Shown in pieces: positions 4,031 through 31,248 of a stretch of 64,000 nt of DNA. The position numbers were made by a program, and so were the translations under genes. The notes under the pieces are model-generated. The model saw nothing but the letters and a program-made list of their open reading frames with translations. It was not told where the DNA came from and searched no databases. The number at the start of each line of letters is the position of its first letter. Position 1 is the stretch's first letter. Origin of the DNA: a virus (Duplodnaviria; Heunggongvirae; Uroviricota; Caudoviricetes); the IMG/VR virus record IMGVR_UViG_3300042296_001032. One strand, written 5' to 3'.

Positions 4031-4073
4031 AGTTAAGCTGTAATTTATCTTATTTATTAATATTTATTAATAT

Positions 4074-4739
4074 ATGAAAAACATTTCAAAAATAAAGTTA
4101 AACTTATTACAAGAAAAACTATACGTAGAGGGTCTATGTAATGAACTATACACTAACATAGCTTTTTACGGTGAAAGAGATTCTGATATAAAATTAATGA
4201 TTGAGTCTTCTAGTGAAGAAAAAGGTACTAATAAAATTTTAAATGATGTTGTAACAGATTTAAAATTGGCACCAAAGTTTATTTTTACTTTTGGTTCTGG
4301 TATTGGAGCTTTTCATGGACCTGTTAGTAGATTGTTACAAGGTTCAGGGTTTAGTATGACTAAAGAAGAAGTTGTTTTATTAATAATAACAGCTATAGCA
4401 ATTTTATTAAATGAACCAGATTCTAAAAAATTAATGGATACTGTTAAAGAAAAAGGTTTATTGCCAGCTTTAAAAGGTGTTAAAGATTTAATATCTAGTG
4501 TTCAAGAGATTATTAATAACATTACTAGAAAAGTAATTAATACCACTTATTCTTTATCAGATGTTTTAGGTTTTACTTTTCTATTGGTACCCACAATGCA
4601 AACTATAAGTAAACTTATTAATGATTATGGGATTACCACAGGAACAATAAGTGAATTGGTGAAGGGGTTATTATTCGCAACAATAACTTACTCGGTTAAA
4701 GGTGTCCTTAAAAAGATTGGTAAAAGGTTTAATGATTAA
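4074..4739 (+). CDS. Hypothetical protein with a hydrophobic central segment
   Basis: 221 aa ORF on the plus strand. Confidence 0.5.
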   Translation: MKNISKIKLNLLQEKLYVEGLCNELYTNIAFYGERDSDIKLMIESSSEEKGTNKILNDVVTDLKLAPKFIFTFGSGIGAFHGPVSRLLQGSGFSMTKEEVVLLIITAIAILLNEPDSKKLMDTVKEKGLLPALKGVKDLISSVQEIINNITRKVINTTYSLSDVLGFTFLLVPTMQTISKLINDYGITTGTISELVKGLLFATITYSVKGVLKKIGKRFND

Positions 4740-5507: not shown

Positions 5508-5657
5508 AGCGTTTTTTATCCGTTAAAATTTGTTGTTTTATACAATGAGTAGAAGTTTTCATCGTTGGGGTTGTTTACAAATAAATATCTAAAAAGATTT
5601 GTTTCTATTGACTTTTATATTTATATTTGTAAGACAAAACACAAAAACACTTTATAC

Positions 5658-6584
5658 ATGAAAATTTCAACAGTTATCACAAACATTTTTTTGGCATCAA
5701 TAATTTTATTATCTTTTTCTTGTAAGAAAGAGGTGATTGAAAAGCCTAACAACACAATCGTTACTAACGATACTATCTATAATTTTATGGATATTGATTG
5801 GACTTTGGCATCAGGTAGATTGTATGTCCAAAATCTTGATAACGGTAGTAAAACTCTTTATGACCATTTTGGTTCAGGACAAAATCAAAGTAGCCTAGAC
5901 CCTTTCAACGGTTCTGCTGTACCTTTTGATGACATTGTTAAAGGTGTTACTACTTGGAGATTTACTACTACTGATTTTATTTTGAATAGTTCTAACTTCT
6001 ATAATTTTACACACTCAGGTGATGCTATCTCAGTTATTGGGTTAGAGAATGGTTCTTCCAGACCTTTGATTATAATCAACATCAACAATACTGCAATGAC
6101 TGTTAAACTTAATGAAGATTATTTATCTAGTGGTGGTGTTAACTATAAAATCTTTACTACATTAACTTTTGTTAAACAAGGTAATGTTTGTAACGGGTGT
6201 GAACCAAACGCTATCTCAGGTTATGTTTATCAAGGAGTATTTGGTAATGGTAGTTCTACACAAAATGATATTGTAGGTACTAAATGGGTTGTGACTAAAT
6301 TTTATGATGGTTTTTCTAATAACTACCCTAACGATACTTTGTACTTCGTGAATAACACTCAATACACTATTAATAGTGGTACACCAAAAAGTTATAATGT
6401 AACTACTGGTTTGGGTTCTAACATGTCTACATTGAACCTTTATGGATTCTACACTATCGGTGGTGATTACAGTGGGATGGTACCAAATACGTTTGTTAGT
6501 GATGGTCAAATTAACTCAGTTAGCTTTACCGATTTGTTTGGTATAAACAATAACAAATTAGTTTGGATGATTAGAATTCAATAA
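5658..6584 (+). CDS. Lipoprotein (signal peptide MKISTVITNIFLASIILLSFSC, Bacteroidetes-type lipobox)
   Basis: Internal Met start at 5658 gives a typical signal peptide plus Cys. TATATTTG -7 box about 27 nt upstream. Strong terminator follows. Confidence 0.6.
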   Translation: MKISTVITNIFLASIILLSFSCKKEVIEKPNNTIVTNDTIYNFMDIDWTLASGRLYVQNLDNGSKTLYDHFGSGQNQSSLDPFNGSAVPFDDIVKGVTTWRFTTTDFILNSSNFYNFTHSGDAISVIGLENGSSRPLIIININNTAMTVKLNEDYLSSGGVNYKIFTTLTFVKQGNVCNGCEPNAISGYVYQGVFGNGSSTQNDIVGTKWVVTKFYDGFSNNYPNDTLYFVNNTQYTINSGTPKSYNVTTGLGSNMSTLNLYGFYTIGGDYSGMVPNTFVSDGQINSVSFTDLFGINNNKLVWMIRIQ

Positions 6585-6588
6585 AAAA

Positions 6589-6620
6589 GGGAGGAAATTA
6601 TTCCTCCCTTCTTTTTTTCT
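6589..6620. terminator. Intrinsic terminator hairpin GGGAGGAA-atta-TTCCTCCC, flanked by A-run and T-run (bidirectional)
   Basis: Perfect 8 bp stem followed by T7. Preceded by A6 on the other strand. Confidence 0.55.
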
Positions 6621-6783
6621 CTTTATAAACGCCTTTAGATTTTTCTCTTCTCTTTCTTACAGACTTCTTATCAAATTCTTTTCTATCATTTAATTGTGAC
6701 ATCTGACGAGTTTTTATAACCTTACCCTTATACTCTTTAAGGGCTCTTTCAATGTTGCCTTTAACAACTTCTATAATAATCAT
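6598..6783 (-). CDS. rpsU: Ribosomal protein bS21-like small basic protein
   Basis: 61 aa, begins MIIIEVVKGNIERALKEYKGKV..., a basic tail follows, KRREKSKGVYKEKKRRE. Pattern matches Bacteroidetes bS21 (MxIIxVxxGENIExALKRFKRK ... KPS.RR). Phage-encoded S21 is well documented. Confidence 0.5.
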   Translation of the reverse strand: MIIIEVVKGNIERALKEYKGKVIKTRQMSQLNDRKEFDKKSVRKRREKSKGVYKEKKRREE

Positions 6784-6794
6784 ATATAAATTTT

Positions 6795-8159
6795 TTATCT
6801 AGTTATAGATACATTTTTTTCAGGGTCATAGAATACTAATTCTTTACTAGTTAAATCTAACTGTAGTTTTTCTATTTTTTCATTTAATTCACCTAATTGT
6901 TGGTCCATATCATCTCTTTTTGTTCTATAGGACGAAATAAAATTTTCAGATTTTTCAAGTTGTTCTACAACCCAATTATATTCATCATCATCACCCTCTT
7001 CTCTACCATATTCAAGCCTTTCTTTATAATTATTTAAAGAACGATAAACCGTATTTACTCTATCTAATTTATTATCTACAATATTTCTTTTATTCCTTAA
7101 TTCTGATAGTTTTAATTTTAACTGTCTAATAGTTTCAAGTGATTCAGAAGAATCCCCCAAAGAATCATAATAATCAGCTAAAGCTTGTTTAGTGTACTTC
7201 TCCATTACCTCTTTTAATTTAGCTAATGCTTCAGTACCCTTTTTTGCTTGGCCTCTACCAGGTCCACCTAAATATTTTAAAACTGTTTTTTCTGGTTTGT
7301 TCTCATCAGCAACATTCCAATAGTCTATCACAGAATTACTGACACTACCTTGGTTAATAAACTCTTCCCTACCCAATTCTCTTGTTTTCTCTAAAGCTCT
7401 ATTATAACCCCTACTTAAACCACCACGAAAAGGACGGTAATGCATTGCTATTTTATAATAGTTTGGTGTGTCCATACTACTTGTTGGAGCTAATCTTCTT
7501 TTATCCATTAAAAAGAATATAGGACCTTGTGTAAAATAATTTTCGTAATAACCAGTATAACCTCTCATAGTAACACACCATCTAGTGTTAGAACCGTATC
7601 TACATGAAGCCTTATGTGTTTTAGGCATCAAAATTAAGAAATCATCATCTTCATAAACCTTATCAACACCAGTCTCTTTTTGTTCTTTTCTTGAAAGTTT
7701 TAATTTTGCCTCATTTGACGCGTCCTCAAGTTCTTTTAAATTACCAAACTGATTTATATCCTTTTTTTCGTATTTTGATGGGTTTTTATGGAAATACTCA
7801 ATATCATCAGTAACTTTTAACAAATCTTCATTACCAAGTGATTGCATTTCCCTAGTTAAATTACGGATGCTATTCCATCTTGAGTCTTCGGCTGTGTCAG
7901 GAACTTGGGTAATGTCCCACCCATGCCAACTTCCAGCACTACTGGCGTTATCTTTAAACCATTTGATGGTTTTTCTTAACATATTTTTGGACAACCAATC
8001 CAAATACTTTTGGTTTCCTGAAGGGTCTATATCAGCTAATCTATCAATTTGGCCCCACATTGGTTGTGGGTATTTAGCTTTAACATCCTCAAGTCTACCT
8101 TCCAATAAAAGGTTTTCAACCTTCTCTAATATAAGTGTTGTAGTTTGTTTAATATTCAT
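6795..8159 (-). CDS. Paralog family A protein (DPSGNQKYLDWL ... ASCRYGSNTRWC motifs), coiled-coil C-terminus
   Basis: Start taken at the internal Met MNIKQTT so that the terminator hairpin at 8184-8207 lies upstream. Shares an N-terminal region of about 250 aa with 11187, 14090 and 16614. Confidence 0.6.
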   Translation of the reverse strand: MNIKQTTTLILEKVENLLLEGRLEDVKAKYPQPMWGQIDRLADIDPSGNQKYLDWLSKNMLRKTIKWFKDNASSAGSWHGWDITQVPDTAEDSRWNSIRNLTREMQSLGNEDLLKVTDDIEYFHKNPSKYEKKDINQFGNLKELEDASNEAKLKLSRKEQKETGVDKVYEDDDFLILMPKTHKASCRYGSNTRWCVTMRGYTGYYENYFTQGPIFFLMDKRRLAPTSSMDTPNYYKIAMHYRPFRGGLSRGYNRALEKTRELGREEFINQGSVSNSVIDYWNVADENKPEKTVLKYLGGPGRGQAKKGTEALAKLKEVMEKYTKQALADYYDSLGDSSESLETIRQLKLKLSELRNKRNIVDNKLDRVNTVYRSLNNYKERLEYGREEGDDDEYNWVVEQLEKSENFISSYRTKRDDMDQQLGELNEKIEKLQLDLTSKELVFYDPEKNVSITR

Positions 8160-8206
8160 AATAATAAATATGCTTAAAAATAAAAAGAGGATTTTAAAAC
8201 CCTCTT

Positions 8207-9688
8207 TTACCACTCAAATTCAATTAAATTTAGTTTTTTAATTGGCAAAAATTTATGTCTTAAAGAATCAGTAGTACCAAATTTGTTATAAGATTTAATC
8301 CATATCCCACTAATCAACTTATTAAAAATACTAACTTTTTTTTCATAATCTAAAACAGCAAGATTATGTTCACTATTTTTTCTAGACCTGAAAATTAATT
8401 TTACCAATAAATCTCTTTTAAAAACACCGTATTTGTCAACGAATTTTTTTGTGATATATTCTATCATTTTAAGTTGTTCTTTAACATTTTTAGTCACAAA
8501 AATTGAACCATCAGAAAATGTTTCTTGTGCTAGATAGTTATTAAAACTATGTATTTGTTCTAAATCTTCTACAATAAAATCACAGTCAAAATAACTTGGA
8601 CTCATATTTAAAATACTAATAAAATCAAAACCACCAAAAACAGTTTCTTTGTAGATATTACTAAGATTATGTTCGTAAGTTATACTTTTTTGATTCTGAA
8701 TATTTTTACCACCAGTAACTGAACTATAAATTTTATTGTAAAATGTTAAAACTTTATTAAAAGCCTCCTCATTTTTCTTTCTAACAAATAAATTCCAAAA
8801 AGAGATTAGTTTAGTGTTATGGTGTATATAAAAATTATTATAATATTTTTCTAACTCAAAACTATTAACCGTGTAATTAAAAACTTCTTGGTTTGAGTTT
8901 ATCTCCACATTAAAATCAAAATGTTCTAAAACAAACTCTCTATTATTCTTCACTTTTTCCATCCATTCAGGACCAATAGAATGAATTTTTTTAATTGTAA
9001 ATGAGTGTTTAATTAAATTCATTTCACAATCAAAGTTTGACATGTCTACCCCCAATTGTACAGATTTGTTTTTAAGTCTTACTGATGTTTGTAGAGGTTG
9101 TGAAACATTTGTAACTTCAATCATATTAGATTCTAAGAAATCTAAAAAATCTTCAGTATAAACGATATTACCGTTAACCCTATCTAAACCAGCCATACAA
9201 CAATTCAAATCAAAAACTGTTAAGAGAGTTTTATAATATTCAGTTTCATTAAAACCTTGAATTGATTTTTTAATAGTACTAACACTAATAGAAACCTTAT
9301 TAATTATACCAAAACGTTCACTACTAAACATTCGCATTGTCTCACCACTAGGACCAACCCAAGTTCTACCATAACCATCCACACCGGCCACATTATCCAA
9401 AGTGGCATGTATAAATAAATTCGGGTCATTGGTGTTGTATGACCAATCGTAACTTAAAACGTTGTCAAAAAAGAATAAGTCAACGTCGTTAATAATTGGT
9501 TCCTCAAACTTTTCTTTGTTTAAAAGATAGTAGATAGTATTTGCTACTGCACCACCTGCCATGAAGTAATGCATGGGGTAATCATCAACCCCAGCCCCAT
9601 CTGAATGGAGTTTGTGATTGATGATTTCCAAGACCTTGTTATAGGTCTTCCCACTGTTCAAAAACTTTATTAATTCTTTTCTATTCAT
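8207..9688 (-). CDS. Putative pol-beta-superfamily nucleotidyltransferase (AGGAV...DVDLFFFD), possibly tRNA nucleotidyltransferase-like
   Basis: 493 aa. N-terminal GG-x-V then D-x-D motif resembles the head domain of CCA-adding / poly(A) polymerase enzymes. Weak. Confidence 0.4.
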   Translation of the reverse strand: MNRKELIKFLNSGKTYNKVLEIINHKLHSDGAGVDDYPMHYFMAGGAVANTIYYLLNKEKFEEPIINDVDLFFFDNVLSYDWSYNTNDPNLFIHATLDNVAGVDGYGRTWVGPSGETMRMFSSERFGIINKVSISVSTIKKSIQGFNETEYYKTLLTVFDLNCCMAGLDRVNGNIVYTEDFLDFLESNMIEVTNVSQPLQTSVRLKNKSVQLGVDMSNFDCEMNLIKHSFTIKKIHSIGPEWMEKVKNNREFVLEHFDFNVEINSNQEVFNYTVNSFELEKYYNNFYIHHNTKLISFWNLFVRKKNEEAFNKVLTFYNKIYSSVTGGKNIQNQKSITYEHNLSNIYKETVFGGFDFISILNMSPSYFDCDFIVEDLEQIHSFNNYLAQETFSDGSIFVTKNVKEQLKMIEYITKKFVDKYGVFKRDLLVKLIFRSRKNSEHNLAVLDYEKKVSIFNKLISGIWIKSYNKFGTTDSLRHKFLPIKKLNLIEFEW

Positions 9689-11164: not shown

Positions 11165-11189
11165 GGTGGGATATCCCACCTTTTTTTTA
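11165..11189. terminator. Terminator hairpin GGTGGGATATCCCACC followed by T8 (bidirectional)
   Basis: Perfect palindromic stem plus T-run. Confidence 0.55.
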
Positions 11190-12014
11190 TTTGATAACAC
11201 CCATTGTTTTTAATACAGAGGTTAATACTTCATTAACCTCATCGTTAGTTAAGTCTACAGACCTTAAAGTTTCTACTGCACGTTGTACAGATACTTTTGA
11301 TTCTGTCATGAATCTTGTTTTTAACTTCAACTTAAGTTGTTGAACAAAGTCGTCTTTAACTTTTTCTGCGGCAAAGTTAAAATTGTCACCATAGATAAGT
11401 TTAATTTGACCTAGATTTAAACCAGCATCTTCATTGTTATAAAATGTAAAACTATTAACATTAACAGTTAAACCTTTATTGCTATTAATAGGAACTCCAA
11501 ACTTTCTATTAATTCTTTTATCTATGATGTAGTATAAGAAACCTTCCCTCATATAGCTATCGTAATAACCTTTTTGAGTTGTACACCACTTAGTACCCAT
11601 ACCATATAGTTTAGAAGAATCGAAACTAAGTGGAACAAGAATTTTCCAATTATCATCTTCAAAAACAACTCTTACATCATTCTTAACCTCAGACCTAGAA
11701 GGTATATTTAATTCTTGTACCTTTAAAAGAAATTCATTGACAGTTTTAAATTTGTTTATATCTCTAAAATCAGTTGGGATTTTGCCATTTAAGTTTCTTT
11801 CAAACCAAATTAAAGATTCTTTAACAGGGTTTTCCAATGATGCTGGAAAATCAGGGTTAAGTCTATACTTACCATTAGTAAGACTAATATATCTAACTTT
11901 GAATAACCATTCAATATATTTTTGGTTAGTGGTTGGGTCCATTCTACCAATTAACGCAACAGACCTTTCAGATACACCGTATTTAGTTTTTAATTCTTCT
12001 AATTTCCTAGACAT
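11187..12014 (-). CDS. Paralog family A protein (short form; DPTTNQKYIEWL, GMGTKWCTTQKGYYDSY)
   Basis: 275 aa. TACAAATATA (-7 box TAnnTTTG on the coding strand) at 12038-12047. Confidence 0.6.
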   Translation of the reverse strand: MSRKLEELKTKYGVSERSVALIGRMDPTTNQKYIEWLFKVRYISLTNGKYRLNPDFPASLENPVKESLIWFERNLNGKIPTDFRDINKFKTVNEFLLKVQELNIPSRSEVKNDVRVVFEDDNWKILVPLSFDSSKLYGMGTKWCTTQKGYYDSYMREGFLYYIIDKRINRKFGVPINSNKGLTVNVNSFTFYNNEDAGLNLGQIKLIYGDNFNFAAEKVKDDFVQQLKLKLKTRFMTESKVSVQRAVETLRSVDLTNDEVNEVLTSVLKTMGVIK

Positions 12015-14089: not shown

Positions 14090-15265
14090 TTAATCAAGAT
14101 TATTTTTTATTTTGTATTCTTCTAAATAATCTCCAATAAATAATTCTGCTTCTTTATAATAATGGTTACTCATTTCAAACCCTACTACTTCATCTAATAT
14201 TTCATTAAATTCTTCTTCATATTCATCAACTATTTCTTCAGTTAAAACATCTGAGATTTCTAAAGGTCTGCCAAACACTCTCTCTATTTCTTCCCCAATG
14301 GGTAGGTCTGGGTTAATATTATACTTCTGTCCTAATATTAATTTAACCGTATAGGTTAATTCTCGTAATAACATATCTCTATCAATATAATAATCATTAA
14401 ATGGTGAATTATTCAAATCTTGTAATAACATATCATATAACTCTTCCTTATCCATACCGAGGTGTAATAACTCTTCCAGATCAAAACCAGGTGAGTCAAA
14501 TAATCCATCCATAACTTCATTATTTATTATAAAATATGAGTGACTTTCAATAAAACTCTTAAAATTTATTAAATCCTCAAATGTTGTAATAAAATCATGT
14601 CCATTATTAGTTAACCAATCATTAATATAGTTATAATTAATACGACCAATTTGTTCTGGTGATGCCGTCATTTTTCTTGAGTTGTGGTACTCCATTAATT
14701 TTTCAATAATTTGTTCGTATTTTGGATGTAGATGAATTATAATTTGAGGATTTGTTTTACAATTATTAACTGCATTACACCAATCGGTTCCACCCCCTGC
14801 TTTAATATGGTAAGAAAATTTATGATTTGGGTCGTCCTGTGGTTTGTTTTTAAAAATCCAAAAGAATTCAGTTCCAGTAGTATTATGTCTATCCCAGTAT
14901 GAACTAGTATCTTTAGCAGTTGTACACCATTTAGAACCCGCACCATATTTACAAGACGCTTCCCACGTATTAGCTGCCACTACCAACAAGTCTTTATCTT
15001 CATAAAACTTAGTAACATCATCAGGGGCTTTAGCCTTTTTAATTTGATTTAAATCTTTTAATAATTCTTCATAAGAATTGTAATTAGCAAAATCTTTTTT
15101 TGGTAGACTTCTTCTATTATCAATTACATCATCCATTATTTTCATGGCAGCCTCAGGGTTACCACTTTTCTTATTAGCCCAAGATTTATAAAGATTTTGT
15201 ATATGTTCAATACCCTCAAAAAGTGAACGTTTAATTTCTTCTAAAATAATTTTTTTAATATTCAT
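14090..15265 (-). CDS. Paralog family A protein (MNIKKIILEE...; ASCKYGAGSKWCTTAKD)
   Basis: Start at the internal Met. Shares the family motifs. Confidence 0.6.
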   Translation of the reverse strand: MNIKKIILEEIKRSLFEGIEHIQNLYKSWANKKSGNPEAAMKIMDDVIDNRRSLPKKDFANYNSYEELLKDLNQIKKAKAPDDVTKFYEDKDLLVVAANTWEASCKYGAGSKWCTTAKDTSSYWDRHNTTGTEFFWIFKNKPQDDPNHKFSYHIKAGGGTDWCNAVNNCKTNPQIIIHLHPKYEQIIEKLMEYHNSRKMTASPEQIGRINYNYINDWLTNNGHDFITTFEDLINFKSFIESHSYFIINNEVMDGLFDSPGFDLEELLHLGMDKEELYDMLLQDLNNSPFNDYYIDRDMLLRELTYTVKLILGQKYNINPDLPIGEEIERVFGRPLEISDVLTEEIVDEYEEEFNEILDEVVGFEMSNHYYKEAELFIGDYLEEYKIKNNLD

Positions 15266-15283
15266 ATTAATAAATATACTGTA

Positions 15284-15525: not shown

Positions 15526-15908
15526 TGGTGGAGGTGGAGGGTTTCGAACCCTCGTCCTGCGTTACATTACTAACGTCTTCTACATGCTTATTCCATTTTA
15601 ATCTAAATGGACAAAATATTTGATTTATTATTTACCATTGTAAATCAACAAACAATGGGTATCATTCGATTTTGGGTTCAATGATAATCCACCACAACTA
15701 CGACTTCTGTTGCTAGGTTATATGTCTGCCGACCCCGTAGTAACACCTAATATGATTAGGCAGCTACTGTTGCACCTTCAGTCACAAAGTGACCTACAGT
15801 TGCGTTTGCGAATACGTCGCCGTTTGAAGTTTCAATACGTGTATTAACGTGATAGTATTATTTCACGACATGCTTACCCATTACCAATCGTTAACCAGTC
15901 AAATCCAA
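15526..15908 (-). ncRNA. ssrA: tmRNA (ssrA-like)
   Basis: Minus-strand 5' end GGGGGTGTTTTTGGATTTGACTGG matches the canonical GGGGCUGAUUCUGGAUUCGACGGG. 3' end ...TAAGCATGTAGAAGACG...GGACGAGGGTTCGAAACCCTCCACCTCCACCA matches canonical UAAGCAUGUAG...GGUUCGA..CCACCA. Internal candidate tag frame ends ...EGATVAA then TAA. Confidence 0.7.
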
Positions 15909-15969
15909 AAACACCCCCAATAATTCAAAGAACTCTTACAAATATAAGAATAAATATTAAATAATCAAA

Positions 15970-16613: not shown

Positions 16614-18038
16614 ATGAAATTTAACTTATCTCAAATTTTAGAATCTACTATATTATTAGAAGGTAGAAGAGAAGATGTAATTAAAAAATATGGTGAAGAC
16701 CATACCGAACTTGTTGATATGTTTGTTGAGGTTGACCCATCAGGAAATAACAAATATCTTGACTGGATGATTAAAACCGCTTTAGGTAAAAATCAAGATG
16801 ACAGTATACCAATGGCTGACCAAATAGCTAAAGCTGTAGTGGACTATCATAGACTATTACCTAGAATTAAACAAAAAGATATTAATACTTATAAATCTTT
16901 ATCTGAATTAAATGATGTTGTTGCTCAAGCTTTAAAAGATGAAAAAGACAAAAGAATTTCTAAAGAAGCGACAAAAATTTATGACAAAGATGGTGTTGTG
17001 ATTTACGTACCATTCACAGTTGAAGCTTCATGTAAATATGGTGCTGGGTCTAAGTGGTGTATAGCTGGTAAAAGTGGTGATAATAATTTAAATACTTATT
17101 TTGACTCCTATAGTGAACACTCAAATTTCTACTTTTTTATTAACAATAATTTAGTTAATAGTGATAGTACACATTACAAATACGCTTTACAATGGAGATT
17201 TGATGGTAATGGTAGAGATTTAACTTGGTGGGATGCACGAGATGATTCACACAGTAACGCACCTTATTGGGTGACTCCTGATATGATGGCGGTTGTGGAA
17301 GCTTTTAATCCTTCACACACTAAGAAAAAATTAGCTATAAAAATAGCTTCTTTCCTTGATGACCCTAAATTTGATGAGTACGCTAAATTTAAAGATTATA
17401 TTACACCTGAACAAAAAACTAACGTGATTAGTAAAATTATTAAAAAAGGTGGACTTAACTCTAAAGCTTTTAGTATTTTAGCGTCTGACCTTAATGATAA
17501 ACAAAAAATGGACTTTATCACTAACTACGTCAAAGGTACAGTTAACGCTAATGATTATAAACAAATGCAAGAACATTTAACAGAGTTACAAAAAATGACT
17601 TTAGTTAAATTCAATCCATCTATTCTTAATAATATTGATGTTATGAATGACTTGAATAAGGAATTGACAGATGACCAAAAATATGAATTATCTAAAGTAG
17701 TTGACGCAAAACAAATAAACAATACAGATAGTAAAGTATTGTTTAGAAAATGGTCTATGAGTGCTGAAGAAAGAGCAAAACACGGTCAAACTTCTTTCTA
17801 TGTATTCTTATCTAATCCAGAAGACTTAGTTGAGAAGATAGTTAAAGTTGACCCATTAGACCCAGAATCATATAGAACAATCAACATGATGAAACTAAGA
17901 AAACAAGTACAACCTGATACTTCAATGTATGGTATTAAAACTGAATCTGGTTTCCTTGATGATTACATTGGTAAATCTACATCAGATATACCTACTTCTG
18001 TTTTAGAAACTATAAAAGAAAAATCAACAAAAATTTAA
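16614..18038 (+). CDS. Paralog family A protein (MKFNLSQILES...; DPSGNNKYLDWM; ASCKYGAGSKWCIAGK)
   Basis: Start at the internal Met to avoid overlap with the HNH gene. Terminator follows. Confidence 0.6.
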   Translation: MKFNLSQILESTILLEGRREDVIKKYGEDHTELVDMFVEVDPSGNNKYLDWMIKTALGKNQDDSIPMADQIAKAVVDYHRLLPRIKQKDINTYKSLSELNDVVAQALKDEKDKRISKEATKIYDKDGVVIYVPFTVEASCKYGAGSKWCIAGKSGDNNLNTYFDSYSEHSNFYFFINNNLVNSDSTHYKYALQWRFDGNGRDLTWWDARDDSHSNAPYWVTPDMMAVVEAFNPSHTKKKLAIKIASFLDDPKFDEYAKFKDYITPEQKTNVISKIIKKGGLNSKAFSILASDLNDKQKMDFITNYVKGTVNANDYKQMQEHLTELQKMTLVKFNPSILNNIDVMNDLNKELTDDQKYELSKVVDAKQINNTDSKVLFRKWSMSAEERAKHGQTSFYVFLSNPEDLVEKIVKVDPLDPESYRTINMMKLRKQVQPDTSMYGIKTESGFLDDYIGKSTSDIPTSVLETIKEKSTKI

Positions 18039-23351: not shown

Positions 23352-23544
23352 ATTTTATTTTTTTATTATAAATATAATACAGATTTAAATTTTGTCAATA
23401 AAAAACCCCACACTTATTCGAAATCGGTGTGGGGCGTAAAACTCTAGAACCTGAGAACTAGAGGGTCCCGTTGTTTCCAACGGTGGGGTTAAAAGACCTA
23501 TCCTGGGACGCTGTTCTTATGGGTAGCGTGATAGGTACTATTAG

Positions 23545-23617
23545 TAGCGGGAGCTGGACTCGAACCAGCGGCCTTCAGGTTATGAGCCTGCTGAGATACC
23601 AACTTCTCCATCCCACA
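23545..23617 (-). tRNA. tRNA-Met/Ile2 (anticodon CAT)
   Basis: Hand fold: D-arm GAGA/TCTC, anticodon loop CTCATAA, T-arm GCTGG-TTCGAGT-CCAGC. Position 1-72 is a T-T mismatch. Confidence 0.55.
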
Positions 23618-24001
23618 ATATATGGTATATAAGGGAGGATTCGAACCTCCACGAACTTATTCAAAACTAGGTTTCTTTCAGTCCATACATTTTACAAGAG
23701 TCTAAGGATTTAATTCTATCATATTATTAAATCTATCTATATAACTTGTTACAGTTGGTTTTTAAAGAGTACCGTAACCAAACCTCTTGACCAGTCTGAT
23801 TATAGACCACCAAGATTAGCTAAATCTAAGGTCTTTTAGGCTTTTACAGAACTCCCAATCTAACCTTACTCTCTTTTCAAACGTAAGCGTCTACCAATTC
23901 CGCCACTTATATGTATTATTTCAAAGAACTTTATCACATAGCTGTAGATTTACTCTACTATTTACTCACTAGATAATGATAGTGATACTATGTGATTAGT
24001 G

Positions 24002-24110
24002 TACACAAAGAAGGATTCGAACCTCCAAAACCTACTTTTATCGACCCGAAGGTAGATTATTTTCGGTCAGAGTTGTTACACCCCGTGTTTACCAATTTCA
24101 CCACTTGTGT
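24002..24110 (-). tRNA. Atypical, long (109 nt) tRNA-like gene (acceptor ACACAAG/TTTGTGT, normal D- and T-arms, 36 nt extra internal hairpin)
   Basis: Perfect 7 bp acceptor and canonical D-arm (GTGAAATTGGTAAACAC) and T-arm (GGAGGTTCGAATCCTTC). No standard anticodon arm closes. The extra piece could be an intron, or the gene may be a pseudogene. Confidence 0.35.
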
Positions 24111-24368
24111 ATGTTTTTTATTTGTTTAACAAAGATAATAACTTTTTTTTAATCTGTCAATTTTTTTTTTAATTATTTTAAGACCATGTATTTTACCCCA
24201 TCAACAATCTTAACCATATATTTCCCTTGGTCCTTTGTTTTACCTTGGGAACGTTTTGTGGACTTTGCTGTTTTTGTGTTCTTCTCTGTTTCACCATACT
24301 TGTTGGCAATAACCTGTTTCATCGAAAATCTTTCCATAATTTTTATTTTTTACAAATATAACAATTTT

Positions 24369-24647
24369 TTACAAAATTTTAGGTGGTGTTTTAAAATTAT
24401 TAAAACCTGGTTTAACTTTTAGATTATCATACTTTCTGTATTTAGAATAAACGTCAGCCCAATAATTAACACCTTCGAGTGTTTTTCTAAATTCAAAAGA
24501 AACACCAATAAACCCCATCCAGCTGATAAATTCTAAATCTAAAAATTCCTCTACAGAATAGTTAAATTTATTCAATGAGTTAAAATTGGCAATCCATTTG
24601 GATTGTTCTTCCTCATTCAACCAATTAAAGTAGTCTTTACCTTTCAT
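24369..24647 (-). CDS. Hypothetical protein
   Basis: 92 aa ORF. Confidence 0.4.
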   Translation of the reverse strand: MKGKDYFNWLNEEEQSKWIANFNSLNKFNYSVEEFLDLEFISWMGFIGVSFEFRKTLEGVNYWADVYSKYRKYDNLKVKPGFNNFKTPPKIL

Positions 24648-24665
24648 AAGGCAAATATAATAAAA

Positions 24666-25454
24666 TTATTTTGATTTTTGTTGTTGTTCAGCTTTAAAAA
24701 GTGTGTATATGTTTTTGAATAGTACTTCTTTAGCTTGTGGTGTCTCACCCTGTTCTATAAATTGGTTAACAAACTTAACTAATTCTGTTTCTTTTTCTCT
24801 GTTTAATTTTGATTTATAATCCATAACATCATAGATACTCATAAAATAAAAACCACCCATGTTAACAGAATCTTTTAATATTGATTGTTCGTCCCTAACA
24901 TCAAAATCATTTGCTCCTTGAACTTTAGCCCTTTTGGGGTCCCATGTAGTAAAAGCTTCCATATCTTCTTTAATAAGACCTAAACCATTTTTACCTAAAC
25001 CTGGTCTGTAAACCTTACCACCAAAATCTTCCCATTGTTTTTTAAAACGTTCAACAATCTTTGGTACGTTTTCTTCACCTATAACATTACCTATTTTTTT
25101 TAAAAACTCTGAATCAGTGGTATAATTTGTATATAATGTTTTCCAATTACTTTCATCAGGTACAACAATATCCAAATCACCAATATCCATGGACCAAGTT
25201 CTACTATCCATTTGGTTTAAAGCCTTCAATAACATGGGATTTTTAAATAATCTAGCAGAACCAGCGATAAAGTATTCACGTTGAGAAGGATTAATACCAA
25301 ATGCATCAAATATTAATACCTTTGATTTTTTTAATAGGTCATTTAATTTAGTTGGGTCAGCTTCTTGTAAAATATCAGCATTTAATAATATCTCATCTAA
25401 TTTTTTCCAGGCCTTTTCAACCATTAAATCATTATATACCTCAACTAATTTCAT
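24666..25454 (-). CDS. Hypothetical protein
   Basis: 262 aa ORF. Confidence 0.5.
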   Translation of the reverse strand: MKLVEVYNDLMVEKAWKKLDEILLNADILQEADPTKLNDLLKKSKVLIFDAFGINPSQREYFIAGSARLFKNPMLLKALNQMDSRTWSMDIGDLDIVVPDESNWKTLYTNYTTDSEFLKKIGNVIGEENVPKIVERFKKQWEDFGGKVYRPGLGKNGLGLIKEDMEAFTTWDPKRAKVQGANDFDVRDEQSILKDSVNMGGFYFMSIYDVMDYKSKLNREKETELVKFVNQFIEQGETPQAKEVLFKNIYTLFKAEQQQKSK

Positions 25455-25458
25455 ATAA

Positions 25459-25923
25459 TTAAAGTTTTTGTGAATGGATATAAGGAACGTCTAATCCATA
25501 ATTTTCTTTTATCCAATCTCGGAATATATCTGATATTTCTGAAGAATTCAGATCAAATCCCTGTCTCAAAAACGTCCAAATAGAATCATCTACAAACATT
25601 TGGTTAGTGTCATGGTCGTAAGCCATAATATCTCTTTCACCATCTTTATACATTACATATCTATAATCCCTCTCAACGCTTTTACCGTTAACAGTCATTA
25701 CCTTTATAGTATCAGTTTTAAGTTGTTCCTCTTCTAATTGTGGAATTCTATCTAAGAAATTATTATAGTCACCACCATAAATTTCATCTGCTAATTTTTT
25801 AGCACCACCCACATCTTGAGCATCTTGTTCCCAATTTAAAGGATCATATTTATAATTGGATGACATACCAAAATCATCCAAAAAAGACTCTTTTAAAATT
25901 TTCTTAATCAATCGTTTCATCAA
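25459..25923 (-). CDS. Leader-family protein (MMKRLIKKILKESFLDDF)
   Basis: 154 aa. Conserved leader. Confidence 0.6.
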   Translation of the reverse strand: MMKRLIKKILKESFLDDFGMSSNYKYDPLNWEQDAQDVGGAKKLADEIYGGDYNNFLDRIPQLEEEQLKTDTIKVMTVNGKSVERDYRYVMYKDGERDIMAYDHDTNQMFVDDSIWTFLRQGFDLNSSEISDIFRDWIKENYGLDVPYIHSQKL

Positions 25924-25934
25924 TAATAAATATC

Positions 25935-26126
25935 TTACTTTTCTTTAGTCTTCAGATATTCTTTAAGATTTTTATTACCCTTTTGGTGTATTGGGTCAAA
26001 ACAACAGTGTCTACAACCGCTGCCACAACAAGTACCACGTTTTTTATGGTATCGTTCAGTTAAAACAATAGCCCCATTCTCTAGGTAATAATCCTTACCT
26101 TCTTCAAATATAAAATCTTTATCCAT
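25935..26126 (-). CDS. Small Cys-rich protein with CCG and CRHC motifs (DUF5522-like)
   Basis: 63 aa, GTCCGSGCRHCCF. Confidence 0.5.
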   Translation of the reverse strand: MDKDFIFEEGKDYYLENGAIVLTERYHKKRGTCCGSGCRHCCFDPIHQKGNKNLKEYLKTKEK

Positions 26127-26628
26127 TTTTAAATCCTAAATATTGTTTCCAATCATTACTAATTCTATTTATTTTTTCAACAAAATATAAATAAGAAGGT
26201 CTGAAAGGTTTATGTCTCATGGTTAAATTATACTCTGATAAAAACTCATCAACATCCTTACTACACTTTCTAACATTACAAATACCACAACAAGTAACCA
26301 AATTTTCCCAAGTATTAGAACCACCTTTAGACCTAGGGATAACATGGTCAATGGTTAAATCAGTTGTAGCACCACAATAAATACATTCATTATCATCTCT
26401 TTTAAAAATATTCTGTCTAGATAGATGAACTTTCTTAAAAGGCAAAACAATATACTTCAGTAACCGAATTACCGTTGGTCTAATATAATCTTTTTTATCT
26501 GTCACAATTGGGTTTTCTGACTCGTGAGTCACGACTTCAGCCTTACCTTTAAACACTAATTTAAAACCCTTTTGTAGTGTGGTAATGTTTATTGGGCTGT
26601 AGTCCATGTTTAATACTAACACTTTCAT
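26119..26628 (-). CDS. HNH endonuclease
   Basis: CIYCG...DHVIPRSKGGSNTWENLVTCCGICN is a canonical HNH motif. Confidence 0.65.
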   Translation of the reverse strand: MKVLVLNMDYSPINITTLQKGFKLVFKGKAEVVTHESENPIVTDKKDYIRPTVIRLLKYIVLPFKKVHLSRQNIFKRDDNECIYCGATTDLTIDHVIPRSKGGSNTWENLVTCCGICNVRKCSKDVDEFLSEYNLTMRHKPFRPSYLYFVEKINRISNDWKQYLGFKNG

Positions 26629-26646
26629 AAGGCCTTTTATTTATAA

Positions 26647-27435
26647 CTATTTATTTTTCCATTCTTTCCAAGTATCAAAATCTTTTAACTTCTCCATCTC
26701 TTCTTCCATCCATTTAGCTCCTGATATAAACATATCTTTCCAATAACCTGCATCTGATGGTCGATGGTAAGGGTATTTCCTATCTAATACTTTAGTTGCC
26801 GCTTCTTCTAGTGTTTCTTGTTTTAAAGCATTTTCTTTTGCTTCCTTTAGAATTTGAATAGATTCTTTTTCTTCACAGTTATCACATACACCACAAGTAC
26901 ATTCTTGTTTAGGTTCTTCTTGTGGAATGACAGCACTTCTTCTAATGAAATGTGAATCAGGTAAAGTGTCTAAATGCTTTTCTAAATTCGTTTTAGGTTC
27001 TTCTTGTGGAACGATGATTTTATGTAGTTTTTCTATATATTGAGTTGATTTTTTATCAGATGGATGACTAATTTCAATAAATGACTTTATTTTATAGTCA
27101 ATATCAACACTCTCACAACTTGGATTCTTAACAAACCATTCTAAGAACTCATCATCAATAGCTTGAACACCGTTATCTATTAAAAATTGGTCTGTTGTTA
27201 GGATTATTTTACCAAAATTTTCTCCTTTAGGATAATTAATTATTGCTTTTTCAATTAATTCTCTTACAGAATAAAACCAATCTCCTTCTTTAATTTCTTC
27301 GTTAGAAGTGATGTAGATGTTTAATTTTGTTCCACTATACTCTTTACGTGGCGTTTGAATTAAAAGTAATCCTGTATGTTTTTGAACAATGGAATGTTGT
27401 TCCTTATCCGTTGGTATTAAATGTATGTTTTTCAT
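26647..27435 (-). CDS. Hypothetical protein with a C-terminal Cys cluster
   Basis: 262 aa ORF. Confidence 0.5.
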   Translation of the reverse strand: MKNIHLIPTDKEQHSIVQKHTGLLLIQTPRKEYSGTKLNIYITSNEEIKEGDWFYSVRELIEKAIINYPKGENFGKIILTTDQFLIDNGVQAIDDEFLEWFVKNPSCESVDIDYKIKSFIEISHPSDKKSTQYIEKLHKIIVPQEEPKTNLEKHLDTLPDSHFIRRSAVIPQEEPKQECTCGVCDNCEEKESIQILKEAKENALKQETLEEAATKVLDRKYPYHRPSDAGYWKDMFISGAKWMEEEMEKLKDFDTWKEWKNK

Positions 27436-27436
27436 T

Positions 27437-27712
27437 TTATTTAAATTTAAATTTTTTATAGTTAATAAATTTTGGGTGTAGTTCAGAGGTATCCAATTTG
27501 GTTAATCTTTTATGTGCCTCATTTGGTTTAGTAGAAACCATAATAACCTTTGTTTTCCCATTAACATCAGGTTCATCCAAATCAATACCGTACATCCAAA
27601 AACCAAATCTATCAGGCATCGATATATGAGCAAAAGTGCCAGTCATACCATCCCAAACGGAACTTCTTTTACCCTTCTCAATTCTAACCTTAGTACCAAT
27701 TCTATAATACAT
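27437..27712 (-). CDS. Hypothetical protein
   Basis: 91 aa ORF. Confidence 0.4.
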   Translation of the reverse strand: MYYRIGTKVRIEKGKRSSVWDGMTGTFAHISMPDRFGFWMYGIDLDEPDVNGKTKVIMVSTKPNEAHKRLTKLDTSELHPKFINYKKFKFK

Positions 27713-27715
27713 ACC

Positions 27716-28117
27716 TTATTTAATTTTCCATACAAAATAAACACACTTATCAGAACAATCCCAAGTATCCAATAACTTACCACCATCCAATGCGGCAACA
27801 TGTTTGGTAATTCTGATGATATATTTACCGTTAGGGTCCATTTCCACCAATTCCTTAGCTGTCATTCTTTTTTGACCCTTAACTCCAGGGAACGAAATTC
27901 TTTCCCACTTAACACCCAAGTCGTCCAAAGTCTTTGTTACTTGGTCTTCCCAATTACCTTTAGATGATTTTCTAGAGGCTCTCCAACCATGACCATACAT
28001 AAGTTTATGAACCTTAGAATAATTTTCTTTTGTGATATTTGCTACAGCCCTGACCATACAGTCTTTATTACATCTGATATCCTCAATTCCCTTTGGTTGT
28101 GTATACTCAAAAATCAT
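27716..28117 (-). CDS. Hypothetical protein
   Basis: 133 aa ORF. Confidence 0.5.
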   Translation of the reverse strand: MIFEYTQPKGIEDIRCNKDCMVRAVANITKENYSKVHKLMYGHGWRASRKSSKGNWEDQVTKTLDDLGVKWERISFPGVKGQKRMTAKELVEMDPNGKYIIRITKHVAALDGGKLLDTWDCSDKCVYFVWKIK

Positions 28118-28200
28118 AGTCCCTTATTTTATTTCTACAAAGATAAGGAATTATTTTTAAATATCAAAATAAAAATCCCCTTGTCAATACAAAGGGATTG

Positions 28201-28274
28201 TGGTCCTTCACGGGCTCGAACCGTGGACCCACAGATTATGAGTCTGTTGCTCTAACCGACTGAGCTAAAGGACC
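28201..28274 (-). tRNA. tRNA-Met (CAT), elongator type
   Basis: GGTCCTT-TA-GCTC-AGTCGGTTA-GAGC-A-ACAGA-CTCATAA-TCTGT-GGGTC-CACGG-TTCGAGC-CCGTG-AAGGACC-A. All stems close and G1-C72 pairs. CCA is not encoded. Confidence 0.7.
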
Positions 28275-28279
28275 TAAAT

Positions 28280-28360
28280 TAGTCAGGACAGGATTTGAAC
28301 CTACGAGAGTCTTTTCGCCCCACGGGTCTCATTTAGGCGTCACCATTTCGCCACCTGACT
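28280..28360 (-). tRNA. Atypical tRNA-like gene (acceptor AGTCAGG/CCTGACT, D-arm GGCGAAATGGTGACGCC, T-arm GTAGGTTCAAATCCTGT); anticodon arm not resolved
   Basis: Perfect acceptor, D and T arms, but the 31 nt between the D and T arms do not form a canonical anticodon arm. Confidence 0.3.
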
Positions 28361-28365
28361 ATTTT

Positions 28366-28614
28366 TTATTTGATAATTAAACTAAATGGTGTTTTAATAT
28401 GTGTCCCGTCACCATTAACCTCAACTATACCTACTGAAACACCTTCCAATTCATCTGTATAATACATACTTGGTGTACAATAATATTTCCCATTAGACAC
28501 CTGTTCCATTAGTTCTTTCATTTTAAGGAACGACTCAACTAATTCCACAGGGATCTTACTGTCGTAACTATCACCATCATAATTCACCATTTGGTATGTT
28601 TCTTTATTTTCCAT
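28366..28614 (-). CDS. Small hypothetical protein embedded in the tRNA array
   Basis: 82 aa ORF between two tRNA-like genes. Confidence 0.4.
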   Translation of the reverse strand: MENKETYQMVNYDGDSYDSKIPVELVESFLKMKELMEQVSNGKYYCTPSMYYTDELEGVSVGIVEVNGDGTHIKTPFSLIIK

Positions 28615-28631
28615 AATTTTTTATTTTTTTG

Positions 28632-28737
28632 TAGTCAGGACAGGACTTGAACCTGTATGTGTAACTTTCTTGGCCCTTCCCCAATGGCACACTATCCACT
28701 CGTTAATTTAGCGTCTAACCAATTCCGCCACCTGACT
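28632..28737 (-). tRNA. Atypical tRNA-like gene with about 30 nt extra sequence (acceptor AGTCAGG/CCTGACT, D-arm GCGGAATTGGTTAGACGC, T-arm CAGGTTCAAGTCCTG)
   Basis: Shares its acceptor with the 28280-28360 locus. 106 nt is too long for a standard tRNA. Possibly intron-containing. Confidence 0.3.
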
Positions 28738-28952
28738 ATGTTTCCCCACCTGAGATTAATGGTGAGTAGATATTCACAGTTTTTCTATTTCAAAACCCAA
28801 CGTGTCTTACCACTTAAAAGTCAACTCTTACTTGGGGGATAGGAGAGTCTTCCTTCCGATTCCCAACGAGTACCCCTTGACGTGGTGGTACCAGCTCCGT
28901 TAAGTTTTGAGGGATACTTAAAAACCCTACGAGTATCTCTTTCTCGTTTATT

Positions 28953-29558
28953 TTAAATATTTTTGTAGTTTAACAAATATCTTTCTTTCCTTGCTGAATT
29001 CTTATTTTTAGATTTGTATGTGTCTAACTGTGAATCACAATTATGACATATTAATCTTAGATTATCTCTTTTGTTATTACTAGCATCACCGTTTATATGG
29101 TCCATAACAAAAACTAATGGTTTACCGTTCCAAAAATTATCTATTCCACAAATATTACACTTATTATCTTGGTCTATTAAAAAATATTTTTTTAACCATC
29201 GCAAACCTGATGTGGTATTACAATATTTTTCTTGATTGTCTAAGTAATCTTTGTATTTATTTTTATTTTTATGTTCCACATTACAATCAAATGAACAATA
29301 TATTTGTTTATCGTGTGAACTTTTTGTTTCTTTACCACAATTTTTACATATAACTTTTTTACCCATACCTTTATTGTGTGGTATAAAATTTTCAGGAAAA
29401 TTTTTTCTTTTTCTAAGTTTAATCCCTAATCTGCCACACACTTTTTTTATGTATGCGTCACTAACACCATAAATTTTACCAATTTCACGATAACTCTTAC
29501 TCTCAACAAAAATTAACTTCTCAAGTTCTTCTTTATTATATTTTTCCTCAAAATTCAT
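28953..29558 (-). CDS. HNH homing endonuclease with an N-terminal HTH (free-standing, inside the tRNA array)
   Basis: SYREIGKIYGVSDAYIKKV helix-turn-helix. DHINGDASNNKRDNLRLICHNCDSQ HNH motif. Located between tRNA genes. Confidence 0.65.
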   Translation of the reverse strand: MNFEEKYNKEELEKLIFVESKSYREIGKIYGVSDAYIKKVCGRLGIKLRKRKNFPENFIPHNKGMGKKVICKNCGKETKSSHDKQIYCSFDCNVEHKNKNKYKDYLDNQEKYCNTTSGLRWLKKYFLIDQDNKCNICGIDNFWNGKPLVFVMDHINGDASNNKRDNLRLICHNCDSQLDTYKSKNKNSARKERYLLNYKNI

Positions 29559-29624
29559 AATATATTTTATTAATAAATATTTAAGGTTTATTAAAAATCG
29601 AACCTAGTAGTTAATATTTTTTTA

Positions 29625-29697
29625 GTAGTCCCGTCAGGATTCGAACCTGAATCAAAGAGGTAGAAGCTCCTTATGTTAATCCATTACACTACGGGAC
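29625..29697 (-). tRNA. tRNA-Arg (TCT)
   Basis: GGTCCCG-TA-GTGT..ACAT-A-AGGAG-CTTCTAC-CTCTT-TGATT-TCAGG-TTCGAAT-CCTGA-CGGGACT-A. Confidence 0.65.
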
Positions 29698-29781
29698 CCA
29701 AAAATAAAAGAGGTTTCGTCAACGGTGCACTACGACAAGATATTACTAAATTATCTACGTACAAAGTATCCACCTCTTTTG

Positions 29782-29853: not shown

Positions 29854-29914
29854 AAATACCACATTATAAAACCATAAAGGTACAACTCTTGTGGTGACGT
29901 TGTTCATTTCACAG

Positions 29915-31230: not shown

Positions 31231-31248
31231 AACACAAATATAATAAAT

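Follow-up and report, generated by a model that had tools for sequence, protein, structure and literature searches.

The ribosomal protein most commonly found in viruses is bS21. Here we describe a bS21 gene in a 64,000-nucleotide stretch of DNA (hereafter the window) from a virus classified in Caudoviricetes, IMG/VR record IMGVR_UViG_3300042296_001032. The open reading frame (ORF) lies at 6598..6783 on the minus strand, begins with ATG, encodes 61 amino acids and ends in TAA, exactly as the initial annotation of this DNA had it. Its protein runs from MIIIEVVKGNIERALKEYKGKV to KEKKRREE (full translation MIIIEVVKGNIERALKEYKGKVIKTRQMSQLNDRKEFDKKSVRKRREKSKGVYKEKKRREE), and we regard it as almost certainly the product of a genuine phage bS21 gene. 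The features that belong to the gene itself, with the evidence for each, are:

6598..6783, minus strand: coding sequence of the bS21 (rpsU-like) protein (PF01165, PDB matches, 175 homologues, ratio of nonsynonymous to synonymous substitution rates, dN/dS)
6625..6627, minus strand: codon of Tyr53, the counterpart of Tyr54 in Flavobacterium johnsoniae bS21 (aligned with 7jil_z and Flavobacterium bS21 by HMMER and BLASTP)
6587..6610, both strands: predicted bidirectional intrinsic-terminator hairpin (terminator scan, folding, covariation)

Identity and conservation of the phage bS21

The ORF scores 31.4 bits against the Ribosomal_S21 profile PF01165 (gathering score 27, E-value 1.6e-7), with the match extending over profile positions 2-53 of 55. 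A search of all PDB chains with the single sequence recovered bS21 only, led by 9i5v (1.2e-7) and the F. johnsoniae chain 7jil (4.5e-6); both of these are Bacteroidota-type, and Firmicutes chains came far behind. A profile of 28 family members likewise retrieved bS21 chains only, at 3e-15 for 9i5v, 1.5e-13 for 7jil and about 4e-3 for Firmicutes. The bS21 identity that had been proposed for the ORF is therefore upheld by significant profile matches. By BLASTP, the phage protein is 46% identical to Flavobacterium bS21 across 54 residues; it is collinear with bS21 across its full length and has an isoelectric point (pI) of 10.3. The AlphaFold2 model of the 61-residue protein (predicted local distance difference test score, pLDDT, 71) places helices at residues 11-33 and 40-51, and when this model was compared with the PDB using Foldseek all nine matches were bS21 or mS21 chains, mitochondrial S21 included, at non-significant E-values above 1 in every case. 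Taken together, the matches identify the ORF as a bS21 homologue at the level of sequence, although one whose status as an equivalog is not certified by TIGR00030, and within the S21 family it lies nearest to the bS21 of Bacteroidota.

Relatives of the protein are numerous. A large protein database contains 175, and copies identical to the window protein, already labelled 'ribosomal protein S21' by the Joint Genome Institute (JGI), are present on 18 contigs, the longest measuring 252 kb. IMG/VR supplies 105 relatives, on viral contigs no longer than 380 kb, and the JGI metagenomes supply at least 373, from freshwater and marine samples; none of the relatives sits on a megabase contig. The subfamily takes in phages from fresh water and from the sea, at identities that fall as low as about 52%. 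As had been anticipated, the ORF is conserved in related genomes, being found in 107 distinct coding sequences, with synteny kept in relatives, and ten residues including Y53 are invariant across 28 diverse members. Using the Nei-Gojobori method, dN/dS against the window copy is 0.10-0.24, and the median across 1,742 pairs is 0.31. The phage bS21 is under purifying selection.

To judge how far this clade extends into cells, 185,579 species, each represented by one genome, were scanned with a single peptide pattern, Kx[YL]K[SG]K[VI]I[KR]T. The scan returned one relative, on a 2.8-kb contig of a metagenome-assembled genome (MAG) of a Bacteroides sp.; in its gene arrangement this contig matches the viral loci in which S21 lies in a structural module, and carries a 239-aa gene that overlaps its S21 stop. 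With this one match among all the species genomes, the clade is phage-specific as far as that one motif shows. Among 50,697 GenBank phages, megablast of positions 5000-12000 of the window gave no match, and tblastn of S21 gave a sole match, to a 735-kb uncultured phage (E-value 7e-3).

A predicted terminator hairpin at the S21 stop codon

The S21 gene converges with a lipoprotein gene, and the two stop codons are 13 nt apart. The hairpin between them, AAGGGAGGAA-ATTA-TTCCTCCCTT, has ten base pairs, five of which are G:C, and a 4-nt loop at 6597-6600. Read on the plus strand, it is followed by CTTTTTTTCT, with a T-run at 6612-6618 that lies, like the 3' arm, within the S21 coding sequence. Read on the minus strand, it is followed by TTTTATTG, which yields six consecutive T once the last two stem bases are counted, and the A/T-run at 6585-6588 comes after the lipoprotein stop. 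The S21 TAA is the reverse complement of 6598-6600 and falls within the loop, one arm corresponds to the last four S21 codons (AGA AGG GAG GAA, encoding R R E E) and the codons that precede them (AAA GAG AAA AAA) complement the plus-strand T-run. Folding gave -15.8 kcal/mol (z-score -2.4) for the plus strand and -20.9 kcal/mol (z-score -4.4) for the minus strand, the latter equalled by none of 200 shuffles. The initial annotation had placed the stop codon inside a bidirectional terminator common to S21 and the lipoprotein gene, and both points hold, with the TAA in the loop, a U-tract on both strands and the hairpin between the convergent stops.

With its G+C-rich hairpin, its flanking A-run and T-run, and a stem and U-tract on both strands, the element resembles bidirectional intrinsic terminators found between convergent genes. 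It differs from typical examples in that an arm and a U-tract lie inside S21 codons; the 13-nt gap between the convergent stops means that these parts are built from the last S21 codons, with the stop in the loop. This layout recurs in a sub-clade of relatives with tails ending in KKRRE[E/D/N], where the 5' arm is made of the last codons (AGA AGG GAR GAN), the stop sits in or beside the loop and the 3' arm comes after it. The stems themselves vary by lineage (GGGAGGAA/TTCCTCCC, GGGAAGAC/GTCTTCCC, GGGATAAC/GTTATCCC, GAGGGG/CCCCTC and GAAGAAGA/TCTTCTTC). Across ten in-register sequences 89% of cells are paired, a level that none of 500 shuffles reached, and six of the ten hairpin pairs show changes on both sides, which two of 500 shuffles equalled; when one partner is slid by 1-3 columns, pairing falls to 45-62%. 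The covariation analysis draws on 10-14 sequences, the closest relatives not being among the matches listed in the metagenome scan, and the formal pair count leaves out the window and three loci (L011, L102 and L105) that are out of register in the stop-anchored alignment; their hairpins fold equivalently. Distant members that share the lipoprotein pairing (arrangement A, below) have an ordinary terminator entirely past the stop. A covarying hairpin in the sub-clade and an ordinary terminator in these distant members indicate that the S21 tail and the terminator co-evolve, and the compensatory pattern points to a hairpin that is under selection. A ribosome positioned on the S21 stop codon would be expected to cover the hairpin, and if this is the case then termination of the S21 transcript should need RNA polymerase to run ahead of the ribosome.

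Gene order and phage context

Around the S21 gene, the following further features were identified:

5598..5629, plus strand: TTTG-N20-TATATTTG, a match to the promoter consensus of Bacteroidota type lying 28 nt ahead of the lipoprotein start codon (pattern search)
5658..6584, plus strand: predicted lipoprotein of 308 aa with signal peptide, Cys22 lipobox and two lipocalin-like domains, paired with S21
6795..8159, minus strand: 454-aa gene that precedes S21 on its strand, with 11 nt between the two (ORFs; phrog_17056/28193)
8157..8171, minus strand: -7-like promoter element ATATTTATTATTATG abutting the start of the 454-aa gene (motif count)
8183..8208, minus strand: terminator-like hairpin after the preceding 493-aa gene (-13.0 kcal/mol, z-score -2.6), the upstream bound of the S21 unit

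The S21 gene had been described as sitting right after a lipoprotein gene. It does lie beside one, but does not follow it, the two being convergent. The lipoprotein begins MK, continues with a hydrophobic stretch and then reads [F/T]-S-C-K-K-E; past the signal peptide the motif S-C-x-K-x-E, with a lipobox of the form S-C-[K/E]-K-E, is invariant in all 22 distinct homologues, and an alignment of 35 homologues shows little or no variation at residues Ser21, C22, K24 and E25 of the protein. Its AlphaFold2 model (pLDDT 83) has a helix at residues 5-20 and two lipocalin-like beta-barrels, and the top Foldseek matches are lipocalin-like EF0376 (2e-4), the TbpB C-lobe, DUF4822 and Bacteroides lipocalin-like proteins. 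We therefore assign the neighbour as a predicted signal peptidase II lipoprotein with Cys22 as its lipobox cysteine. Its SCKKE lipobox resembles what we take to be the surface-export signal of Bacteroidota. The family has 95 homologues, all without names and all on contigs of at most 312 kb, and gave no Pfam or PHROG match. The promoter at 5598..5629 is of textbook host type and would leave a leader of about 24 nt.

We fetched 172 loci (designated by L numbers) and found two conserved arrangements of the S21 subfamily among them; loci L090-L092 stand outside the arrangement counts. In arrangement A (35 loci, 27 of them non-identical to the window), S21 is convergent with a homologue of the 308-aa lipoprotein. 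Identity ranges over 52-100% for S21 and 38-100% for the lipoprotein, and the upstream neighbour varies, being the 454-aa gene, a DUF6011 gene or one of 200 aa. [quoted passage not shown] Most arrangement B S21 genes have GATATTTGTAnTAT immediately before the ATG. Arrangement B is that published by Chen et al. 2022 (ISME Commun 2:31; PMC9723584), and the gene of about 238 aa is probably the 'bS21_CN' neighbour described there. We considered whether the window lipoprotein could be a homologue of this gene and rejected it, the hhalign probability being 0.1.

Chen et al. (PMC9723584) described five clades (a-e) of 293-331-kb freshwater Bacteroidetes phages with about 31-34% G+C, 5-25 tRNAs and bS21 located 2-6 genes from TerL, portal, prohead protease or major capsid protein genes. 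The window has much in common with these phages: its S21 belongs to the same subfamily (63-66% identity to loci so arranged), it comes from a low-G+C, tRNA-rich, large phage of freshwater metagenomes with an inferred Bacteroidota host, and it shares the aromatic residue at the Tyr54 position, a divergent N-terminal helix, a clade-specific C-terminus and an abutting convergent neighbour. Its genome traits can be set beside theirs, with 30% G+C, at least 24 tRNAs and, for the longest contig that carries the identical protein, 252 kb compared with 293-331 kb. It differs from them in that S21 is not a reverse-strand gene inside a TerL/portal/protease/capsid module, that its partner is the unrelated 308-aa lipoprotein, and that the two genes share a hairpin terminator in place of a 4-nt overlap. 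Neither Pfam nor PHROG revealed a structural gene in the ORFs that were scanned from 1944 to 15265; these ORFs are without known relatives, or are the lipoprotein. The same paper found structural genes near bS21 in only 388 of 900 published bS21 phages, and the lipoprotein pairing, as a second context, shows that the link between bS21 and structural genes is not universal.

Upstream, S21 lies on the majority strand of the window together with the 454-aa gene, whose synteny with S21 is kept in L001-L011 and L094-L111. We infer that the two probably form a single transcription unit from 8159 to 6598, with the 454-aa gene as first cistron. Four paralogues resembling phrog_17056/phrog_28193 lie around S21 (6795..8159, 11187..12014, 14090..15265 and 16614..18038), and the same upstream motif is common to two of the four. 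In three relatives (L090 9218..9988, L091 4847..5617 and L092 2031..2801) a GIY-YIG/NUMOD3 homing endonuclease gene stands between the 454-aa gene and S21. The insert is 804 nt long, with the endonuclease on the opposite strand, and in these 90%-identical relatives it is set in flanking DNA of about 97-98% identity; it replaces the 11-nt spacer (window 6784..6794) and the first seven S21 codons, so that MIIIEVV becomes MLITHVN, and TATATTTATAAAT directly precedes the ATG. The insertion in these loci marks the S21 start as a homing site.

For the window as a whole we favour a source in a jumbo, myovirus-like phage of roughly 250 kb, with a freshwater Bacteroidota host that is probably Flavobacteriia-like. 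The 64 kb hold 24 tRNAs by ARAGORN, or 26 tRNA matches by Rfam, and a transfer-messenger RNA (tmRNA). Also matched are Mom, many HNH endonucleases, Phage_L5_gp82, Gp23-like pieces and many PHROG families, alongside DnaJ, FKBP, RNase HII and ferritin. For a DUF2828/DUF7788 protein, 710 phage records, KVP40 and S13 among them, contain homologues at roughly 50% identity, and a CHU_C type IX secretion sorting domain provides a host signal. Most of the window ORFs are without known relatives, and the top Pfam families of its 86 ORFs include no ribosomal protein besides S21. The Gp23 matches found across the window were considered as structural genes beside S21 and rejected: the only Gp23-like pieces are two overlapping ORFs of 78 and 141 aa at 50064..50685 on the minus strand, 43 kb from S21, and their order is scrambled (C-terminal region, then residues 248-309, then N-terminal region). 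Compared with the capsid genes of related phages, which are about 600 aa long, they match one part at 52-59% identity, and the region looks like a fragmentary or rearranged capsid-like gene and not a full one.

Several other features of the window deserve mention in their own right. The tRNA arrays and the tmRNA lie in 23544..47310 (minus strand) and 15526..15918, and include tRNA-Ile(TAT), two tRNA-Met and two tRNA-Arg; the tmRNA tag is ANATVGHFVTEGATVAA, and matches to the Bacteroidota-type promoter immediately precede the tmRNA (at 15939..15969) and one of the tRNA arrays (at 37343..37373). Four weak Rfam tRNA matches were not called by ARAGORN (24002..24110, 28280..28360, 28632..28737 and 36537..36606), two of which span 105-109 nt and could be intron-containing or degenerate. 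Beside a tRNA array, an RNA-repair-like trio at 33715..35976 (HAD_SAK_2, a cREC_REC cyclic-phosphate receiver and a calcineurin-like phosphoesterase) may counter host defences that cleave tRNA. Two adjacent Mom-family DNA-modification genes occupy 51606..53133 (E-values 1e-54 and 1e-22). The regions 38499..42435 and 43353..45560 encode a GAF-PAS-PAS histidine kinase, a second HATPase_c protein near a small receiver-like gene and a 735-aa PKD/CHU_C protein bearing a sorting signal for type IX secretion; it is unusual for a phage to carry genes for sensory signalling and type IX secretion cargo.

The expression signals of the window are also of Bacteroidota type. The consensus TTTG-N17-23-TAnnTTTG, which corresponds to the -33/-7 promoter reportedly used in Bacteroidota (Bayley et al. 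2000), is matched 19 times in the window, where 6.5 +/- 2.7 matches would be expected. Shine-Dalgarno (SD) motifs occur upstream of 5.8% of window ORFs compared with 6.6% in the control, and are thus not enriched, while positions -14 to -9 before starts are 59-65% A and depleted of G; SD-less initiation is a known habit of Bacteroidota (Jha 2021). In addition, -7-type elements (TAnnTTTG or ATATTT[G/A]) end 4-11 nt before the start of 17 of 93 window ORFs, compared with 2.6% of ATGs (for example at 8157..8171, 15263..15277, 4060..4074, 24648..24660 and 35977..35988). One such element heads the 454-aa gene of the S21 unit, another stands before S21 itself in 29 of 92 distinct relatives, and the related motif ATATTTATTAWTATG occurs 13 times in the window where 4.4 are expected. 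If transcription starts about 4 nt past the -7 element, as the consensus would have it, these mRNAs would be leaderless or nearly so, which suggests that many of the phage mRNAs may be of this kind.

Comparison with host bS21 and the proposed role on the ribosome

In F. johnsoniae, the 3' tail of 16S rRNA is held by bS21, bS18 and bS6, with Tyr54 of bS21 stacking on A1534 and Ile55 contributing further contacts; the marks of bS21 in this phylum are the signature Tyr54 and a less basic C-terminal domain (Jha et al. 2021). The phage protein resembles F. johnsoniae bS21 (PDB 7JIL; Jha 2021, McNutt 2023) in length, in its predicted two-helix layout and in the N-terminal motif MxIIxV...NIERALK...YK, the Bacteroidota-type chains being its best matches of all solved bS21 chains. 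The signature tyrosine is kept as Y53, and is present in 122 of 132 subfamily members. The initial annotation had proposed a comparison with the C-terminal residues specific to Bacteroidetes, and here the tyrosine is retained but Ile55 and the weakly basic tail are not. It had also taken the Arg/Lys-rich tail as the Bacteroidetes pattern; the tail is real, but the reading of it reverses the published rule, a less basic C-terminal domain being the norm in these bacteria (Jha 2021).

There are further differences from the host protein in helix 1 and upstream of the gene. Helix 1 reads KGKVIKTRQM in the window and KRKFDKTGTVRQL in Flavobacterium-type bS21 (KVIKTRQM in place of the KFDKTGTVRQL of F. 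johnsoniae), and G20, V22, I23 and Q27 align opposite Arg21, Phe23, Asp24 and Thr28 of F. johnsoniae. According to these alignments, the changes fall on essentially the positions at which the N-terminal helix diverges in phages, namely Arg21, Phe23, Asp25 and Thr28 (Chen et al. 2022, PMC9723584). Host rpsU genes of Flavobacteriales carry an extended, strong SD, through which ribosomes lacking bS21 boost bS21 synthesis (Jha 2021, McNutt 2023). No SD was found upstream of the window S21, where the best duplex with the anti-Shine-Dalgarno (ASD) sequence has +0.4 kcal/mol, and none in 85 of 88 distinct S21 upstream regions among relatives.

The initial annotation had cited the view that phage bS21 biases translation initiation, which is a hypothesis of the published work and could apply to the present protein. 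Overall, we think it likely that the gene encodes a functional bS21 homologue that reprograms host ribosomes, and we hold the individual steps of such a scheme to be only slightly better than evenly balanced. The phage bS21 would replace or out-compete the host protein on 30S subunits during infection, which should be feasible given that bS21 binds late and exchanges easily. It would keep the ASD sequestered, in which case initiation would stay SD-independent as in the host, and its altered N-terminal helix, facing the mRNA path, may favour phage mRNAs. As the phage gene has no extended SD, its synthesis would escape host autoregulation, and ribosomes filled with an ASD-hiding phage bS21 would keep translation of host rpsU low. 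There is precedent in the bS21 of a pelagiphage, which is taken up into the 70S ribosomes of E. coli (Mizuno 2019, PMC6375957), and in the high level of phage bS21 transcription at late stages of infection (Chen 2022, PMC9723584).

Several observations weigh against this account. The ORF reaches 25.9 bits against NCBIfam TIGR00030 and misses the equivalog cut-off of 28.95, and its match to the PHROG S21 family is weak (E-value 0.15) and was not used as evidence. The position of Ile55 is taken by Lys54 in the window, with K or R in 108 of 132 members and I or V in 14, and this substitution means that ASD sequestration is perhaps altered and not preserved. Past the KxS hinge, the tail carries a net charge of +7 (pI 10.7), which is also the subfamily median, compared with a median of +2 (pI 9.7, n=120) for Flavobacterium-type bS21, so that the hyper-basic phage tail departs from the Bacteroidota pattern. 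The hinge itself has changed from KPS to K-K-S, with Lys in place of Pro; across the subfamily the Pro position is K, E, P or N. The window S21 also lies outside the structural module that backed the argument of Chen 2022 for late expression. Lastly, the pelagiphage protein left E. coli ribosomes nearly inactive in vitro (Mizuno 2019, PMC6375957), and 'reprogramming' could therefore amount to inhibition.

Some of these same features would fit a protein with an S21 fold that acts off the ribosome, either as a small basic RNA-binding protein (virion-packaged or an RNA chaperone) or as a decoy that titrates a host factor. The missed equivalog cut-off, the lost hinge Pro, a tail far more basic than that of host bS21 and the phage-specific nature of the subfamily all lean this way; extraribosomal roles of bS21 are reported, for instance in the OLE ribonucleoprotein, and packaging into virions has been raised as a possibility by Chen 2022 (PMC9723584). 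We nonetheless judge this role unlikely, given the full-length collinearity with bS21 and an rRNA-contacting Tyr in 122 of 132 members, given that another phage bS21 does enter ribosomes (Mizuno 2019, PMC6375957), and given the phage tRNAs and tmRNA alongside, which point to a translation-directed gene set. A different possibility is that the phage protein frees the ASD tail so that SD-bearing phage mRNAs are preferred. The exchange of Ile55 for Lys and the hyper-basic tail would make the ASD pocket unlike that of the host, and F. johnsoniae ribosomes without bS21 do gain SD recognition (McNutt 2023), but the phage genes themselves contradict the model, with SD motifs no more common than in the control, a shortage of G and an excess of A between -14 and -9, no SD in 85 of 88 S21 upstream regions and the signature Tyr kept. 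We rejected this model, which now seems very improbable.

The basic tail and the changed helix can be combined with the promoter data. In E. coli, loss of uS2/bS21 shifts the ASD path and favours a leaderless mRNA, and it is conceivable on this precedent that the phage bS21 is tuned to such mRNAs, though we find this unlikely. A broader version holds that the clade has re-engineered bS21 for its own mRNAs, keeping the Tyr, gaining a hyper-basic competing tail, dropping the SD and changing the mRNA-facing helix: the tail would out-compete host bS21 for 16S rRNA, SD loss would let the phage protein escape and silence the host rpsU feedback loop, and the changed helix would make ribosomes prefer phage transcripts that are nearly without leaders, a step suggested by the -7-type elements that end 4-11 nt before starts. 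We consider this version improbable also.

Two further explanations concern the origin of the gene and not its action. If the window were cellular, from a reduced bacterial genome or a mis-binned MAG, the gene could simply be the organism's own rpsU, and the resemblance to Bacteroidota bS21, the histidine kinases, DnaJ, ferritin and RNase HII encoded in the window and the relative in a 'Bacteroides sp.' MAG could be read in that way. This is scarcely credible for a stretch that has no second ribosomal protein among the top Pfam families of 86 ORFs, mostly encodes proteins without known relatives together with Mom, HNH, Gp23-like and Phage_L5_gp82 matches, and packs at least 24 clustered tRNAs into 64 kb; its relatives are on viral contigs of at most 380 kb and never on a megabase contig, and the MAG match is itself a 2.8-kb contig with the viral structural-module arrangement. 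Alternatively, S21 might be a recently captured neutral passenger and its overlap with the terminator an accident of tight packing, as the surrounding genes without known relatives, the mobile elements and the GIY-YIG insertion at the S21 start in 90%-identical relatives might suggest. The spread through freshwater and marine phages to about 52% identity, dN/dS well below 1, ten residues invariant in 28 diverse members and the compensatory changes in the hairpin make such a history highly unlikely.

Our preferred account, that of a functional bS21 which reprograms the host ribosome, has a close point of reference in the bS21 of Pelagibacter phage HTVC008M, which alone among viral bS21 proteins has been demonstrated by experiment to enter ribosomes (Mizuno 2019, PMC6375957). 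Both come from large aquatic myoviruses or myovirus-like phages, both are under purifying selection and replacement of host bS21 is proposed for both, but the HTVC008M protein came from a host that is an alphaproteobacterium and uses SD. Viral bS21 genes as such are well documented, with about 1,300 catalogued by Mizuno et al. 2019 (PMC6375957), 90% of them aquatic. The present locus thus extends a published phenomenon and does not open a new one, and the protein was already public under the S21 name. What it adds is modest: the context of a lipocalin-like lipoprotein, a quantified basic tail, the absence of the autoregulatory SD and a terminator made from the last codons of the gene. Its interest lies in the host, since the ribosomes of Bacteroidota are unusual in that bS21 helps to hide the ASD and autoregulates its own gene through an SD. 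Against this background, the locus offers a clean, well-conserved case of a phage bS21 with three testable differences from that of the host, namely the basic tail, the loss of Ile55 and the hinge Pro, and the lack of an SD.

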